DNA of 64,000 nt, from positions 1,617,623-1,681,622 of the forward strand of contig NC_019738.1 of the NCBI RefSeq assembly GCF_000317515.1, given 5' to 3'. This stretch comes from Allocoleopsis franciscana PCC 7113. Its GTDB lineage: Bacteria; Cyanobacteriota; Cyanobacteriia; Cyanobacteriales; Coleofasciculaceae. Each line of letters opens with the position of its first letter. The stretch's first letter is position 1. The notes beneath the pieces were generated by a model. The model was not told the origin of the DNA, did not search any database, and saw nothing but the letters and a program-made list of their open reading frames with translations. Below, piece after piece: positions 3,873 through 64,000 of the stretch. A program made the translations under genes and the position numbers.

Positions 3873-5840
3873 CTAGAAGGTGAATGTGGTTCGGAGGGTA
3901 CCGATAAAGATGTCGTCGTTGCGGCTATCATGACCGGGTGCCGTCAGCCAGATTACACCAGGAGTGATGAGAATATTGGGGGATAGTCTGAACTTATAGA
4001 AGCCTTCCAGGTGGAGACTGGTGTCGCGATCGCTGCGACGTCCGGCTTGGAGACCACCAATCCCACTGGCGAGAACTGCACTACTTGTACCCGTAAGCTT
4101 GGGTTCCATACCCACCACGAAACCGAGCGAGCTACCTTTCTTGCCAAAGTCGTTGATTGAGAGTGTGCCGCCGTAGGTCCAAACATCTGCATCACCAACA
4201 CCAATCACTCTGGCAGCCGTGTATGCACCCCAGCCACTCAAAATTAGTTGAGGACTGAAGGCAAAAGAGGCTTCTAGACCGTAGGAGTTGCCGACCACAG
4301 GACTACCATTGACTCGGACATTAGAAGCAAGACTCCCCGTACTGTGATTGAGTCCTATGCCGCTGCCGGTGTACGAATTCACGTAAGTTGCAGCGATTTT
4401 GAAGGCATCGAATGGCTTAAAGGTTAGCTGGGCTAAAGCACTGTAGTTGCCATCAAAAAGACCAGCACCTTCATCAGGATTGCTGCCTTCATTAGTCGAA
4501 TAAACTGCATCAAAACGGAGAGGACGTTTTCCTCCACCCAAGGTTATTGCAGCCCCTGTCCCCTGACCTCCCATACGATAGATGGGGCTAAAACGACCAA
4601 AGCGAGACAAAGCACCCGTGCCACTTGAGTCTAAGCCAGGGTTAACTACATCCACAATGTCTTCAAAGGGAACCCCACTGGCTAGGAGGTATGCTTGACC
4701 GAAGTTTCCCAATGGAAAGCGGTAGAATAATCGATCGATCTCAACGCTGTTGCCTGTATCAGCAGCGAATCCCAATCGACCCTCTCTCGTGATACCAACA
4801 CCTGGACCAGGAGAACTCGTGAGGGGACCAAAATCATTAAAATTCCCGGCCTGAAGACGAGTCCGCAACAAATCTTTCCCGGTGAAGCTAGTATCGAAGG
4901 AAAGCCGTACTCGGTCTTGGAAGACTGTCTCGTCTCTGGCATAATCGTTCCCCGCCCGATCTTGTCCGCCAAATAAATCGCTAATAGCGAAGATAGCTTC
5001 CCCGCGTAGCTTGGTGGTTGTCGAGAACTGATGGTCTTCTAAGAACGCTACCCGTCCTTCCAACTGATCCACTCGCCCACCTAAGGCGGTTAATTCTGTT
5101 CTGAATTCATCAACCAGCCGTTGCAGCGTTTCTAAATCTGCTTTAGTCGCGAATTCGTTACCACCACCTCCGATGATCCGCTCAATTTGCTGTAGGCAGG
5201 CATTCAATCCAGCCGCAAATTCATAGCGTGTCATGGCTCGGTTGCCCCGGAAGGTACCATCGGGATAACCTGCAATACAACCATAGCGCTCAACTAAACT
5301 GCGTAGCGCTTCATAAGCCCAATCCGTCGGTCTGACGTCGCTCAGTTGGGTAACATTGGTAACTTGGTCAAGAGCCTCAGCAGGACTTCCAGCATCGTTT
5401 TCTTGATATTGCTGGATTTGCTGCAAAACTTCGGCAGATTCAGCCGTTGTCTTGTCTGAGGCGGGTACCTGCTGAGCCAGGGTACTGTCGGCGCGGTTGA
5501 AATTGACGCTAGGGTCTGTTGGGGTTACTGGGGAAATGGAGGGTTGGGTCTGTGTAATCTCAGGTAGTTGGGTTGAGACTTCAACTGTACTCTCAGGAAG
5601 TGCCGCTTGGTCAGTGCCGCTGGCTACTGTTGGCTCAGAAATATTTTGGGGAGCAATGGTGCGGCTAGCAATAACTAGAGTTTGAGGCAGCTCAGTTGAC
5701 GGTGCCACCGTAACTTCAGTAGAATTTCCTACTGTCTGTTCAGACGCATTCTCTTGAGCATAAGCGCTCCCACAAAAGAATAGAGAAGCTCCCAGTAGGA
5801 CTGGACTGAGCCTTAAAATTTTCCAAAACAAGGTTGACAT
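3873..5840 (-). CDS. SLH-domain / OprB-family outer-membrane porin (paralog of 1524..3485)
   Basis: 655 aa. It has a signal peptide, the same SLH motif and a C-terminus identical to that of 1524..3485 (ITPGVIWLTAPGHDSRNDDIFIGTLRTTFTF). It is followed by a ~660 bp AT-rich leader region. Confidence 0.85.
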   Translation of the reverse strand: MSTLFWKILRLSPVLLGASLFFCGSAYAQENASEQTVGNSTEVTVAPSTELPQTLVIASRTIAPQNISEPTVASGTDQAALPESTVEVSTQLPEITQTQPSISPVTPTDPSVNFNRADSTLAQQVPASDKTTAESAEVLQQIQQYQENDAGSPAEALDQVTNVTQLSDVRPTDWAYEALRSLVERYGCIAGYPDGTFRGNRAMTRYEFAAGLNACLQQIERIIGGGGNEFATKADLETLQRLVDEFRTELTALGGRVDQLEGRVAFLEDHQFSTTTKLRGEAIFAISDLFGGQDRAGNDYARDETVFQDRVRLSFDTSFTGKDLLRTRLQAGNFNDFGPLTSSPGPGVGITREGRLGFAADTGNSVEIDRLFYRFPLGNFGQAYLLASGVPFEDIVDVVNPGLDSSGTGALSRFGRFSPIYRMGGQGTGAAITLGGGKRPLRFDAVYSTNEGSNPDEGAGLFDGNYSALAQLTFKPFDAFKIAATYVNSYTGSGIGLNHSTGSLASNVRVNGSPVVGNSYGLEASFAFSPQLILSGWGAYTAARVIGVGDADVWTYGGTLSINDFGKKGSSLGFVVGMEPKLTGTSSAVLASGIGGLQAGRRSDRDTSLHLEGFYKFRLSPNILITPGVIWLTAPGHDSRNDDIFIGTLRTTFTF

Positions 5841-28671: not shown

Positions 28672-28706
28672 GACCCCCCTAACCCCCCCTTATTAAAGGG
28701 GGAACT
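28672..28706 (+). repeat. Dispersed G/C-run hairpin element, CCCCCCTAACCCCCCCTT-atta-AAGGGGGAACT (copy C)
   Basis: It shares about 30 bp with copies at 56499..56532 and 60456..60489, and with 60564..60597 in inverted orientation. Confidence 0.7.
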
Positions 28707-56498: not shown

Positions 56499-56532
56499 TC
56501 CCCCCTACCCCCCTTGAAAAAGGGGGGAACTA
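56499..56532 (+). repeat. Dispersed G/C-run hairpin element (copy D), CCCCCCTACCCCCCTT-gaaa-AAGGGGGGAACT
   Basis: See the copy at 28672..28706. Confidence 0.7.
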
Positions 56533-58940: not shown

Positions 58941-59372
58941 AACGGAGATGTTGCACCCTTTTCATGGATGTCATAACCTGCCAAGAACTTTAGTTCTTGG
59001 CTCATATTTCAAGTCTACTAAAGTGGACTGAAAATAGTATACAGTCGTCTTTAGAGACAGCCTCTTATTTTCCTCCGCCTAGAGTGATGAAAGAGCGCTA
59101 CTTAGTGACTAACAGGAATATTTATCCCAAAGACTTGCCGACTCTGCCTCCTGCCCTTTTTTAGTTCGTCGAACTCACGTTATTTTATAGGCTTTAAATA
59201 ACTTAATTACGGGTCGCAAAACGATTTGTTGCTCAACTGTTACAGCGACAGATGGTCAGACAGGTCTAGAAAAAGCCAGAAGTCTTATCCCTGACTTAAT
59301 TGCTGGTTATACTGAAAGGCATGGCGTTCAGTCATCTGGTTTATCGCAGCAATGTAAAGAGAAAGCAACACC

Positions 59373-59810
59373 ATGATGTTGAGTACAGAATATACTGAGA
59401 TTCAAGCTGAAATTGAGTCTGGTTTAAAAGAAATAATGGCTTCGCAGGGTGCGCTCGTTGTGGCACTGGGAAATTGGAAAACTGGGCAGTGCATTTGCCA
59501 CGAAGGTATTGATAGTCCTCTGTTCCCCAATAGCAAAATTAGCATGGCGGTAACAGGCAACGCTAAAGTCATCCAAGCCAAGATGGAGGTTGCCAAGGCG
59601 CTCCAGTTTTCAGATAAAATTGATCAGATATTAATTGCACTCTCATCGCAGTGGCACTTAATGAATATTCTATCGGCAGAAGACTATTTTATTTATTTAG
59701 CTCTAGATCGAAAATTTTCCAACATTGCAGATGGTACGTTAAAAATAATGAAGGTTGACAGGAAACTATCGCCACTACTCAATTCATACTTGCCGCTTCC
59801 TAGTTTTTAG
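59373..59810 (+). CDS. Hypothetical protein (145 aa)
   Basis: It is an ORF with no recognised domain. Confidence 0.3.
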   Translation: MMLSTEYTEIQAEIESGLKEIMASQGALVVALGNWKTGQCICHEGIDSPLFPNSKISMAVTGNAKVIQAKMEVAKALQFSDKIDQILIALSSQWHLMNILSAEDYFIYLALDRKFSNIADGTLKIMKVDRKLSPLLNSYLPLPSF

Positions 59811-59830
59811 ACAATAAGGGAAATCTCTTT

Positions 59831-60374
59831 TCAGCGAGGAATAAAAACCCAGGAGCGATCGCCAGGAGAGTCCTCGAAAATAGCCCCGCGTCGCTTTAAG
59901 TCAAGTTTCATCTCTTCAGTCAGTCCTAAAAATACATATCCATCTCTTAAACTTACCGAGAGTTTGGCTCCAAACTCCACCGGGCTTCCGGCTTTCCCTC
60001 TCACTATTGGACGAATATGCTGTTGACTCAAACTGAGATATAGGGTTTTCTTTGATTTGTTCTACTGTTTCCCGATCGCTTATTCCCAACTTCTCTTTGA
60101 TTATTAATGAACCTAATGCCATCCGAAACGGTAGGGCGGATGCTCCTATATCTTCGGTAAAAGTTTGGGCGTATTCCTCTTCAAACTCATCCCAGGGTAT
60201 TAGATTAGCTATCCTTACCCAACGGTTGTCTTGTGATAACTTTCCCTCAAAGGGTAACTCAAACTTGGACGGTGGCGTGGGAAGTGATTCAACTTTTCGG
60301 TACATTTTCCCTGGTTGAGGTACAAGGGTTTTGCCAGATTTTACCTGATTTCCTTGGACTTGAGCAACTCTCAA
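59831..60374 (-). pseudogene. Remnant of an IS4/IS5-superfamily DDE transposase: N-terminal ~220 codons in two frames, with the C-terminal catalytic half missing
   Basis: The strings LIIKEKLGISDRETVEQIKENP and IRPIVRGKAGSPVEFGAKLSVS are typical N-terminal transposase motifs. The reading frame is broken between the 152-aa and 66-aa ORFs and is truncated at ~59831. Confidence 0.55.
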
Positions 60375-60455
60375 GACCGCTTAACCTATTGATAACTAAG
60401 GGTTTCCGCTTTTCGCAGCAAGCCCTAATTAGTAGTTCGTTGATATCCTCAAATC

Positions 60456-60489
60456 GACCCCCCCTGCCCCCTTTAGTAAGGGGGGAGTT
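60456..60489 (+). repeat. Dispersed G/C-run hairpin element (copy A)
   Basis: The sequence is gaccccccctgccccctttagtaaggggggagtt. Confidence 0.7.
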
Positions 60490-60563
60490 GGAAACAGAAG
60501 CTTTTTCAAGTTTCTTCCCCTTTAATACAATTGTGTTTAAAGCTTGGGGCCTATTCTCTGATT

Positions 60564-60597
60564 GCTCCCCCCTTAACAAGGGGGGTTGGGGGGGGTC
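60564..60597 (-). repeat. Dispersed G/C-run hairpin element (copy B), inverted relative to copy A. Together A and B look like the terminal repeats of a ~140-bp MITE-like unit.
   Basis: The reverse complement of 60564..60597 is gaccccccccaaccccccttgttaaggggggagc, which is about 85% identical to copy A. Confidence 0.65.
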
Positions 60598-60631
60598 TTC
60601 AAGTGTCGCATTCACCCGATCTAGAATGAGT

Positions 60632-61700
60632 TTATTGATCGTGCGATCGCATCAGTTCTCGCCAATCATCAGGATATTCGCTCTTTTCAAAAGCAGCCAG
60701 AGAACGCACAGGTGCTTGATGTTTGCGGCTAAATTCGATTTCTCCCCCTAACTCATTCAACAGTTTTTCTGGACGGATTCCTAAATCTTTATCCTCTGGT
60801 ACAAATAAACGCAGTTGATTCGATAAATCCAGGTACGTTTTGTTATACGGGGTAGCGGTTAGCAAAATACATCGACTTTCATTCAGCGCAATATATTCCT
60901 GAATTGCCCGATAACGCTTACCCTGCCGATTCCGCAAGTTATGACTTTCGTCAATCAATACCACCCGATAACGACGTTCATTCGGTAACTCCGTCTGCAC
61001 CCGACTAATGGAGAGAACTTTTGCCCGGAGTCCATAGCGGTGAACATAGTCCTCCCACATCGTTACTAAGTTTTTAGGGCAAATAATTAGGGTTTATAAG
61101 AAAAAATCTTCTTCTAAAATCTTGGCTAACGTTGTTGCAATTAACGTTTTGCCCAACCCCACCACATCCCCGATTAATACCCCACCTCTACGGTTGACGT
61201 GACGCGCAGCAATTTGAACCGCAGCTTTTTGGAAGTCAAACAACTGATTCTTAACATCGCGAGGAATCTGATATTCAGCTAATCCCGCCCTGGCTTCCTG
61301 GGATAAGTGATAAGCAATTTTCAGATAAATATAGTAAGGCGGAATCAGCTTTTCTCTCGCCCAACTGTTATCGATAATTTCAACCAATTCTTGGGAAATA
61401 TCGATACACCAACGGTCATTCCATCGGTCATCAAACCACTTTTGCAGCTTTTGACAAGCATCATGGTCTAAAACATCAATATTCAATTCCCCTTGATGTT
61501 CTAGCCCAGACAAAGTAAGATTGCTACTTCCCAAAAACCCAATCGTGGGATTAATGATATCACTGCGATGAACTAGGTAAAGTTTGGCATGAAGAGGATG
61601 TCTGAGAAACAGTTTAACAATAACTTTCTGATTTTTTAGCTTAGAACCGCCAACAAAAAAGCGCCCCCCTTGCGGAGAGCGCTTTTTTTAAGCTAAATTC
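60632..61700 (-). pseudogene. Decayed PLD(HKD)-nuclease / SNF2-family helicase gene, truncated at both ends and frameshifted
   Basis: The upstream in-frame extension reads ...HAKLYLVHRSDIINPTIGFLGSSNLT (an HxK(x)4D PLD motif) with no start codon. A stop at 61700 sits directly against the psbA terminator. Walker A is GDVVGLGKT, and the second fragment has DESHNLRN (motif II) and LLTATP (motif III). The frame is broken between 61060 and 61094, and there are no helicase C-terminal motifs. Confidence 0.6.
61650..61692 (-). terminator. psbA intrinsic terminator: a GC-rich hairpin flanked by an A-run and a T-run
   Basis: The sequence aaaaaagcgccccccttgcggagagcgcttttttt lies 20 to 50 bp downstream of the psbA stop. 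Confidence 0.6.
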
Positions 61701-61707
61701 TTAAGAA

Positions 61708-62790
61708 TTAGCCATTGATGACAGGAGCGGTTAGAGCCACAGGAGCCGCTTCACCAGCCGCTAAGTCGAGGGGGAAGTTGTGAGCGTTACGCTCGTGCAT
61801 TACTTCAAATCCCAAGTTAGCGCGGTTGAGTACATCAGCCCAGGTGCCAATCACGCGACCTTGTGAGTCGATGATGGACTGGTTGAAGTTGAATCCATTC
61901 AGGTTGAACGCCATGGTGCTGATGCCCAAAGCGGTGAACCAAATGCCAACTACAGGCCAAGCAGCGAGGAAGAAGTGCAAGCTACGGCTGTTGTTGAAAG
62001 AAGCATATTGGAAAATCAACCGACCGAAGTAACCGTGAGCAGCAACGATGTTGTAGGTTTCTTCTTCTTGACCGAACTTGTAACCGTAGTTCTGAGATTC
62101 GGTTTCAGTTGTCTCACGCACCAAGCTGGAGGTGACCAAAGAACCGTGCATTGCACTGAACAAGGAACCGCCGAACACACCAGCCACACCGAGTTGGTGG
62201 AAGGGGTGCATCAGGATGTTGTGCTCAGCTTGGAACACGAACATGAAGTTGAAGGTTCCAGAGATGCCCAGGGGCATACCATCAGAGAAAGAACCTTGTC
62301 CGATGGGGTAAATCAGGAATACAGCGGTTGCAGCCGCCACAGGAGCGCTGTAAGCAACAGCAATCCAAGGGCGCATCCCTAAGCGGTAGCTGAGTTCCCA
62401 CTCACGTCCCATGTAGCAGAAGACGCCGATGAGGAAGTGGAAAATTACCAACTGGTAAGGGCCACCGTTGTAAAGCCACTCGTCTAAGCTAGCTGCTTCC
62501 CAAATTGGGTAGAAGTGCAAGCCGATGGCGTTAGAAGAAGGAACAACGGCTCCACTGATGATGTTGTTACCAAACAGCAGAGAGCCAGCAACAGGCTCAC
62601 GGATACCATCGATGTCCACAGGAGGAGCAGCGATGAAGGCGATGATAAAGCAGGTAGTGGCAGTTAGCAGGGTAGGAATCATCAGGACACCGAACCAGCC
62701 TACATAGAGGCGGTTGTTGGTGCTAGTGACCCACTCGCAAAACCGTTCCCACACGTTCGCAGATTCGCGACGCTGTAATGTGGTTGTCAT
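61708..62790 (-). CDS. psbA: Photosystem II reaction-centre protein D1
   Basis: 360 aa, nearly identical to the canonical D1 ([42 protein letters not shown]...[26 protein letters not shown]...[23 protein letters not shown]). Confidence 0.97.
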
Positions 62791-62917
62791 GTTTTTATGA
62801 TGGCTTAATAATTTTTCAAGGTTCAGCGGGCGCTTTTGTGTTCGCCCATACTTAACTTAACCCATCTGTTGCGTTTTGTAAAGTTCTTCAAACTTTTTTT
62901 AGAATCCCTCAGTCGTG

Positions 62918-63280
<363 letters not shown>

Positions 63281-63415
63281 TTATGAAAGCGACTCAGACT
63301 GCTAGCAATTTTACGTAATCAGCATCCTGGAACGAAACTAAATCCAGTAATTTCCCGGTTCAGTAACCCAGAGGACAAGCCCTATACTCGCGCTTAAGTG
63401 TCAGGGGAATTGAGA

Positions 63416-64000
63416 TGCTAGCTAGAGTTTGGAGCGCTTCTATTGTAGGAATCGATGCGGTTAAGGTGGGTGTTGAAGTGGATGTGTCTGGTGGGTTGCC
63501 GGGAATTGTCGTGGTTGGTTTACCCGATACAGCCGTTCAAGAATCACGAGAACGAGTCAAGGCGGCACTGAAGAATGCGGGTTTTGCCTTTCCCATGCGG
63601 AAGATTGTGGTGAACCTGACACCGGCTGACTTGCGTAAAGAAGGGCCAAGCTTTGATTTACCCATTAGTGTGGGCATTATGGCGGCTTCAGAGCAGGTGA
63701 GTGCCGAATTGTTGGGCGATTACCTATTTTTAGGAGAAGTTTCCCTGGATGGCAATCTGCGACCCGTTGCGGGTGTATTACCGATTGCGGCGGCGGCTAA
63801 ACGACTGGAGATTGCGGGTTTGATCGTTCCGGCGGATAATGCACGAGAGGCGGCAGTTGTACAGGGATTAGTGGTTTACGGTTTCCAGAATTTAGCGCAA
63901 GTGGCTGACTTTCTGAATCAGCCAGAGCGTTACTCCCCGGTGCAGATGGATGGGTTACAGGCGTTGCGAACCTCTCGGTCAACGGGGCCAGACTTAAAAG
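63416..64000 (+). CDS. comM: YifB/ComM-family Mg-chelatase-like AAA+ ATPase (3'-truncated by the window end)
   Basis: The N-terminal ChlI/Lon-like domain reads MLARVWSASIVGIDAVKVGVEVDVSGGLPGIVVVGLPDTAVQESRERVKAAL. The ORF runs off the window end without a stop. Confidence 0.75.

Follow-up and report, generated by a model that had tools for sequence, protein, structure and literature searches.

The 3′ flank of psbA in the filamentous cyanobacterium Allocoleopsis franciscana PCC 7113 was analyzed within a 64-kb stretch of its chromosome (contig NC_019738.1, positions 1,617,623 to 1,681,622; hereafter, the window). The segment 61645..59927 on the minus strand is very probably what remains, without function, of an operon of two genes that resembled a restriction-modification (R-M) system, had been acquired horizontally and formerly lay 3′ of psbA on the same strand. 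The surviving wreckage, ~1.7 kb from one operon and one insertion sequence (IS) of the IS5 family, lies between the psbA terminator and a native block containing orf145, and no coding capacity for a working nuclease, helicase, methylase or transposase is left at the locus. A preliminary description of this DNA had taken it for a decayed defence island with a helicase-nuclease pseudogene and a transposase remnant. Its core, an acquired and inactivated restriction-like helicase-nuclease with a dead transposase beside psbA, is supported, and is strengthened by a remnant of the cognate methyltransferase, overlooked in that description, which adjoins the helicase fragment in the order and orientation of the intact operons. 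"Island", by contrast, is a generous word for remains of this size, and the left limit placed at 59831 is ~100 nt too far, within native host sequence, as the transposase homology ends at 59927. Feature coordinates are given in Table 1.

The largest piece derives from a gene for a protein with an HKD nuclease motif of the phospholipase D (PLD) type fused to an SNF2 ATPase. It is read in one frame and corresponds approximately to residues 122-458 of a protein of 1110-1156 aa. A tblastn search with an intact PLD-SNF2 protein, as proposed in the preliminary description, was carried out with WP_012413138 from plasmid pNPUN01 of Nostoc punctiforme. Residues 122-458 were recovered at 61642..60641 with 73% identity (E = 4e-160), a match far beyond chance, and no other piece of this protein was found in the 64-kb window. 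The fragment is 90% identical to an intact 1121-aa gene in a metagenome locus (L104). The four motifs listed earlier for the nuclease and ATPase (HAKLYLVHRSD, GDVVGLGKT, DESHNLRN and LLTATP) are all present on the minus strand in this single frame, and the fusion is confirmed by Pfam, which detected PLDc_2 (1.9e-9), RE_NgoFVII (3.8e-6), SNF2-rel_dom (1e-13) and ResIII (1.1e-9). The best PADLOC model was PDLC01075 ('C3a139, HKD+Snf2', 1.4e-22), and a PDB sequence search gave generic SNF2 and DEAD-box matches only.

The fragment thus retains the HKD and GSSN motifs and SNF2 motifs I-III. The HxK(x)4D ... GSxN signature of the PLD fold can be read, with only the C-terminal half of the domain left because residues 1-121 are missing, and the N-lobe of an SNF2/SF2 ATPase is represented by motifs I (GxGKT), II (DExH) and III. 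As had been described, the gene lacks its start and the helicase C-terminal domain; ~121 codons at the 5′ end and ~660 at the 3′ end, the latter including the Helicase_C lobe, are absent, and ~30% of the gene remains. Intact members have a Helicase_C lobe in an uninterrupted open reading frame (ORF) of ~1100-1160 aa. Because homology here stops at residue 458 and the frame carries one in-frame TAA, the fragment is a pseudogene derived from the family and not a functional member of it.

The frame break previously placed near 61060..61094 was not observed. The ORFs of 146 aa (61534..61094) and 142 aa (61060..60632) are in the same frame with one TAA between them, the result of a single GAA to TAA change, and the gap to 61060 is merely the distance to the next ATG. 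The exact 32-nt pattern round the stop, with N at the mutated base, had no match in metagenome contigs. Even if the TAA were a sequencing error, 121 N-terminal and ~660 C-terminal codons would still be missing; and the two ORFs are not unrelated small genes that are intact elsewhere, since the relatives carry one gene of 1110-1156 aa. A 12-nt string at 61084-61095, on the stop codon, is identical to the terminal repeat of ISMae6-type elements (TAATTAGGGTTT). A solo IS end at this position was rejected, as the string codes for the conserved T-L-I-I and homology is unbroken on both sides, and the identity seems coincidental.

Intact relatives were found by tblastn as single genes of 1110-1156 aa on plasmids of N. 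punctiforme (pNPUN01), Anabaena cylindrica (pANACY.05), Synechocystis 6803 (pSYSX; WP_011153866, named 'helicase-related protein' in RefSeq) and Pelobacter propionicus (pPRO1); the copy on Leptolyngbya boryana pLBY is annotated as a shorter coding sequence of 673 aa. Over the 336 surviving codons the fragment shares 60-90% identity with the family. The helicase is unusually conserved, at 70-80% amino acid identity over these 336 residues across distant phyla, with relatives in Cyanobacteria, Proteobacteria, Planctomycetota, Acidobacteriota, Gemmatimonadota and Thermodesulfobacteriota, and also on plasmids, a distribution that fits frequent horizontal transfer. A first homologue search with a 339-aa query listed only proteins of 386-593 aa, and this list seems to be restricted in length or biased towards fragments. 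The idea of a family of short proteins was rejected, because many of those listed are halves of frameshifted full-length genes, and the real family is ~1120 aa.

The full-length helicase gene is followed by a methyltransferase gene (1088-1341 aa) in all four annotated plasmids, with Pfam domains Eco57I, N6_Mtase and MmeI_Mtase and PADLOC matches of the type IIG and DrmMI-like kinds. Of 80 metagenome loci, 69 extend as far as the C-terminus of the helicase, with at least 1.5 kb of sequence beyond it in 52 cases; the methylase was present in every one of the 52, on the same strand in 51, with a median gap of 27 nt. Its sequence is much more variable (about 35-65%) than that of the helicase. No conserved third gene was found in the 80 loci, the largest neighbour cluster comprising seven of them. 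Pfam scans of the ten largest clusters, singletons left out, gave Uma2, Hsp70, DnaJ, PIN, GmrSD_N, DprA and other domains as recurrent neighbours. Judged from this gene content, the family is a self-contained two-gene module. Since the methylase follows the helicase in 52 of 52 loci and a third gene is never conserved, we trace the relic to an R-M-like module of two genes, a kind often located on plasmids. As to neighbours of individual copies, the closest intact relative (L104, segments 102-1631 and 5144-5713) has upstream of the helicase a TIGR04096 gene ('DNA phosphorothioation-associated putative methyltransferase', 751 bits) and downstream a Uma2-family endonuclease gene; the same Uma2 gene sits between helicase and methylase in L161 and L177.

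Directly downstream of the helicase fragment, on the same strand and in a different frame, lies the remnant of an Eco57I-like N6-adenine methyltransferase. It reads CDRTINKLILDRVNATLED-[47 aa]-RFEDINEL, that is, 27 codons plus a 47-codon insert, and corresponds to approximately residues 355-385 of proteins of ~1100-1340 aa, or ~2-3% of the gene. By tblastn, 13 of 14 residues were identical to the A. cylindrica methylase and 17 of 28 to that of N. punctiforme. The counterpart is CDRTINKLILDQVNQLVAPRKFDSINDL in A. cylindrica and CDRTIHKLIVDRVNDGLSDRYKPFEDINELL in L170, and L105, L177 and N. punctiforme also match. The downstream same-strand methylase of the intact pairs is thus represented here, in the expected order and orientation.

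The two genes are fused at a 5-nt overlap, TGCGA, which is common to the helicase sequence ...GAA CTG ATG CGA (Met-Arg 457-458) and the methylase sequence TGC GAT CGC ACG (Cys-Asp ~355). At the corresponding positions, intact helicase genes (L104, L105) read ATG CGG/CGA CTG TAT, and intact methylase genes (L087, L145, L147, L105, L001) read TT(A/G) TGC GAT CGC AC. This fusion implies a microhomology deletion of ~3.1 kb, across which 660 C-terminal helicase codons, the spacer and ~354 methylase codons were lost. The highly iterated palindrome HIP1 (GCGATCGC) coincides with the helicase breakpoint, but a role for it in recombination was rejected, since it consists of native methylase codons for Cys-Asp-Arg that are present in intact relatives.

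The methylase remnant is bordered by an IS. A left terminal inverted repeat directly follows ...FEDINEL, indicating insertion in methylase codon ~385, just upstream of the expected catalytic LDPACGSGAF motif. The ISMae6 repeats that it matches were found at both ends of an intact element in L088. The transposase fragment of the preliminary description is real, N-terminal and truncated: NCBIfam transpos_IS5_1 matched its two pieces (1.3e-27 and 3.5e-10), below the 275-bit cut-off because of the truncation, and Pfam found DUF772 on codons 1-92. Of the earlier assignment to an IS4/IS5 type, IS5 stands (ISMae6-like) and IS4 does not. The frame change noted there was also seen, its cause being an internal deletion of ~610 nt (codons 93-295) that joins codon 92 directly to codon 296 in another frame. 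The second piece covers positions 262-299 of the 419 in the NCBIfam profile, and nothing remains of the element 3′ of codon 332, so that its right end is gone as well. Compared with ISMae6 (IS5) from Microcystis aeruginosa, the transposase pieces are 73-76% identical and the terminal inverted repeat is nearly so, (C/T)TAATTAGGG(C/T)TTGCTG. Unlike ISMae6, and unlike any complete IS5 element with a DDE transposase of ~500 aa and two terminal repeats, the element in the window keeps 129 of 498 codons and one end, and cannot transpose.

Table 1. Features of the psbA-proximal relic and its surroundings (window coordinates)
Feature	Position	Strand	Evidence
psbA	62790..61708	-	
psbA intrinsic terminator (stem 61679..61665, T-run, GTTGGC tail)	61700..61655	-	terminator scan
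HKD(PLD)-SNF2 helicase-nuclease pseudogene fragment	61642..60647	-	tblastn, Pfam, PADLOC, NCBIfam, motif positions
HAKLYLVHRSD (HKD motif)	61591..61559	-	frame translation
GSSNLT	61531..61514	-	frame translation
GDVVGLGKT	61171..61145	-	frame translation
Nonsense codon TAA	61096..61094	-	three-frame translation; homologues read GAA (Glu) in ...FLETLIICPK...
DESHNLRN	60952..60929	-	frame translation
LLTATP	60865..60848	-	frame translation
Deletion junction, 5-nt overlap TGCGA	60651..60647	-	DNA comparison with intact genes
Eco57I-like N6-adenine methyltransferase remnant	60651..60433	-	tblastn; both halves align to L170, L105, L177, L001, L087
Palindromic insert, 141 nt; two G6/C6 hairpin units, 30-nt inverted arms	60457..60597	.	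inverted repeat I1/I2
IS5 left terminal inverted repeat CTAATTAGGGCTTGCTG	60432..60416	-	matches ISMae6 terminal repeats TTAATTAGGGTTTGCTG
IS5 transposase codons 1-92	60305..60030	-	tblastn 73% identity, E 5e-37, 498-aa ISMae6 transposase
IS5 transposase codons 296-332	60037..59927	-	tblastn 76% identity, E 4e-13
Downstream relic boundary	59919..59930	.	blastn of L090-L097 against the window, and junction sequences
Further copies of hairpin motif CCCCCCTTnnnAAGGGGGG	28684-28702, 56508-56527		motif scan of window

The mode of decay was judged from the helicase fragment. In its homologous part it keeps all 112 near-invariant columns, defined as at least 98% conserved among 120 relatives, with only two mismatches, which are at the 5′ junction itself; there are no insertions or deletions in this 1 kb. 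The numbers of nonsynonymous and synonymous changes (N/S) on the relic branch were 11/38, and 20/32 on the branch of the intact sister L104 (outgroups L105-L107). Because N/S is not raised and the conserved residues are kept, the gene was under purifying selection until recently, and was destroyed by the IS and by deletions and not by slow point mutation. Decay was therefore recent and by deletion.

The same conservation could be taken to mean that the fragments are still in use, the 146-aa and 142-aa ORFs encoding a truncated HKD/SNF2 N-lobe with, for example, a decoy or regulatory role or a dominant-negative effect on restriction. The near-invariant residues are all intact, nonsynonymous changes on the relic branch are few, and both ORFs are open with possible start codons. 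However, the low N/S is explained equally well by recent inactivation. The 146-aa ORF begins at an internal TTG beyond the HKD motif (H at 61591) and so lacks the catalytic His and Lys, neither ORF contains a complete domain, and no homologue in the first search matches either short ORF as a complete gene. Moreover, a strong terminator lies directly upstream, and promoter-like sites numbered 6 against 5.8 expected in shuffled sequence. Nothing suggests residual function, and we regard this explanation as scarcely credible.

On the reading of a dismantled operon, the sequence shows the following events, given here in a proposed order. An ISMae6-like IS5 element inserted into methylase codon ~385. 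A deletion of ~3.1 kb between two TGCGA pentamers joined helicase codon 458 to codon ~355 of the methylase, so that the C-lobe of the one and the N-terminus of the other disappeared at a stroke. Helicase codons 1-121 were deleted up to the psbA terminator, GAA mutated to TAA in the helicase fragment, and the IS lost codons 93-295. A last deletion removed what was left of the IS and the methylase, as far as the native sequence flanking orf145. A cell that loses methylation before restriction dies, and the restriction gene must therefore have been disabled first or together with the methylase; the TGCGA deletion fits this constraint exactly, as it hits both genes together. Conceivably, though on balance we doubt it, the locus records an actual safe loss of a toxic R-M pair by this single deletion, avoiding post-segregational killing, with the psbA terminator marking the limit that selection set to the second deletion. 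More remotely, the preserved HKD/SNF2 N-lobe fragment may still be expressed and play an interference or anti-restriction role.

Both edges of the relic could be placed by comparison with other genomes. On the psbA side, the hairpin, T-run and GTTGGC tail of the terminator also follow psbA in 10 related cyanobacterial loci, and directly beyond them these sequences part. The first helicase-homologous codon lies at most about 10 nt after the GTTGGC tail of the terminator, in agreement with the earlier statement that the 5′ end abuts it. The order yifB(comM-like)-HIT-psbA, with a near-identical terminator, recurs over many cyanobacterial orders (window 61708-64000, compared with L003-L082), and synteny stops right after the terminator in every comparison. 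The closest HIT identities, 85-89%, were to Microcoleus, Potamolinea and Coleofasciculaceae, and Potamolinea (88%), the closest genome, shows a rearrangement on the downstream side of psbA. A helicase, IS or orf145 was found downstream of psbA in none of the 80 fetched cyanobacterial loci, so that the synteny comparison called for in the preliminary description yielded no intact version at this psbA copy. The presence of this psbA neighbourhood in many genomes that lack the relic genes, together with the occurrence of helicase relatives in several phyla and on plasmids, argues for a foreign origin of the relic.

On the other side, orf145 is a conserved hypothetical cyanobacterial gene, and the block that contains it (59178-59930) is 98.5% identical to eight metagenome contigs (L090-L097), which diverge at 59919 or 59930 into two other arrangements. 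In a comparison over 59117-59930, the contigs have at least three different neighbours on the right. This points to strong strain-level rearrangement round orf145. Two of the eight also diverge on the left, at 59178, into sequence resembling a transposase C-terminus.

These comparisons bear on whether the entire operon once existed here. It might instead have arrived as a pre-fragmented foreign piece, inserted 3′ of psbA in one event of illegitimate recombination or IS-mediated insertion, with no decay in situ. That related genomes and metagenome contigs contain no intact copy 3′ of psbA would fit such an arrival, as would the very low point-mutation load, expected of a recent one, and the different neighbours of nearly identical strains round orf145, which indicate rapid rearrangement and IS traffic. 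Nevertheless, stepwise decay is the simpler account of five separate breakpoints (at the psbA terminator, at the TGCGA junction, where the IS inserted, at the internal deletion of the IS and at its 3′ truncation), and the upstream break, within about 10 nt of the terminator, suggests a deletion that selection on psbA kept from going further. We therefore consider arrival in pieces unlikely; its end product, a dead relic of this operon, would in any case be no different.

Several points weigh against the reading of a foreign operon that was complete 3′ of psbA and decayed there. An intact operon at this position was not found in any relative, among the 80 cyanobacterial loci or the metagenome contigs, and the window alone fits both a complete operon at the psbA site and an arrival in pieces. 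At 41-44% GC, the relic resembles the adjacent native block and lies just under the mean of the window (48%), and composition thus gives foreign origin no independent support. The evidence is that of the 64-kb window, with which an intact copy or an orphan methylase elsewhere in the genome would be compatible. The order of the decay events is a proposed one, as one sequence cannot give it. Finally, a published assay in which an HKD-SNF2 and methylase pair restricts DNA was not found, and the restriction role is one that we infer.

As for the working of the intact module, a mechanism can be proposed from the domains and one published knock-out. The product of the first gene (~1120 aa, N-terminal HKD/PLD nuclease and SNF2-type translocase) would be an ATP-driven restriction subunit that cuts unmodified DNA, and that of the second, an Eco57I-like N6-adenine methyltransferase (~1100-1340 aa) encoded a few tens of bases downstream, would protect host DNA. 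Fusions of HKD and SF2-helicase domains have been interpreted as Type I/III-like restriction subunits (PMC10853773, PMC12839542). In Synechocystis the knock-out of the partner methylase Slr6050 (M.Ssp6803IV, tentatively GAAGGC) did not segregate fully (PMC6105098), which fits the idea that a cognate restriction activity, encoded two genes upstream, is lethal. The apparent essentiality of slr6050 may thus reflect an active cognate restriction subunit. On pSYSX (L085, 43696-51129), slr6050 is two genes downstream of the helicase-nuclease homologue, with a VapC toxin pair between them.

Among known systems, the HKD+Snf2 proteins (C3a139; WP_012413138, WP_011153866) paired with an Eco57I-like methylase resemble the relic most directly, in the domain order PLD/HKD and SNF2 N-lobe (followed by Helicase_C in intact members) and in the same downstream methylase, of which a recognizable piece remains in the window. 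The copy in the window differs from them as a chromosomal pseudogene beside psbA, the annotated intact copies found here being plasmid-borne. Class 1 DISARM (DrmD SNF2, DrmC PLD, DrmMI adenine methylase, DrmA, DrmB) has the same three activities as the intact module, and its methylation-based self/non-self logic is probably similar; in the module, however, PLD and SNF2 are fused in one protein and no DrmA/DrmB (DUF1998) accompanies the pair. Type 2 of the BREX-related (BR) systems, or Hma, consists of a DUF499 ATPase, an N6-methylase, an HKD-Swi2/Snf2 helicase and DUF3780 and is predicted to be R-M-like (PMC12839542). It shares the N-terminal HKD endoDNase and Swi2/Snf2 helicase effector and the paired N6-adenine methylase, while the module here has two genes, and DUF499 and DUF3780 are not conserved beside the pair in 84 intact loci.

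An origin of the helicase fragment from class 1 DISARM or from a DUF499-centred BR type 2/Hma system, instead of a simple two-gene module, would agree with the secondary PADLOC and NCBIfam matches to DrmD and DrmMI and with the domain fusion and N6-methylase of type 2 BR (PMC12839542). Yet the intact relatives, which the preliminary description had likened to DISARM DrmD, score 116-143 bits against NCBIfam DISARM_DrmD, whose curated cut-off is 610, the DrmMI family scores are likewise far below cut-off, and DrmA/DrmB neighbours were not found. DISARM membership was rejected on these grounds. BR/Hma membership was rejected as well, as no DUF499 or DUF3780 appeared in the Pfam scans of the ten largest neighbour clusters; the 80 metagenome loci and 4 plasmids have no conserved third gene. 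Either origin is thus very improbable. NCBIfam NF042964 ('phospholipase D-like domain-containing anti-phage protein'), the best NCBIfam match of the fragment, was also rejected, with 67 bits for the relic and 160-163 for intact relatives against a cut-off of 1100, indicating a related architecture in a different family.

The locus is an ordinary pseudogene relic, notable only for breakpoints that can be read to the base and for a paired, conserved and mobile intact family. It offers a base-resolved example of an R-M-like operon dismantled by IS insertion and microhomology deletions and not by point mutations. In annotation, pseudogene fragments of an HKD-SNF2 helicase-nuclease, an Eco57I-like methylase and an IS5 transposase should take the place of hypothetical ORFs in this stretch, whose importance is otherwise small. 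Unlike this dead copy, the intact module, strictly paired (52/52), very conserved, often plasmid-borne and apparently unexplored experimentally, is a reasonable target for a defence assay.

The 47-codon insert of the methylase remnant is palindromic and lies in a variable linker of the protein, where it keeps the frame and contains no stops, so that translation is continuous. Its predicted DNA fold has a z of -4.2. Within the window there are 4 sites with the hairpin motif CCCCCCTTnnnAAGGGGGG, where 0.03 would be expected, and a near-identical 33-nt copy is found inside the annotated BREX pglX gene on Planktothrix agardhii plasmids (L184, 6001-6033). The hairpin belongs to a dispersed repeat family, and looks like a small mobile repeat that is tolerated by coding regions.

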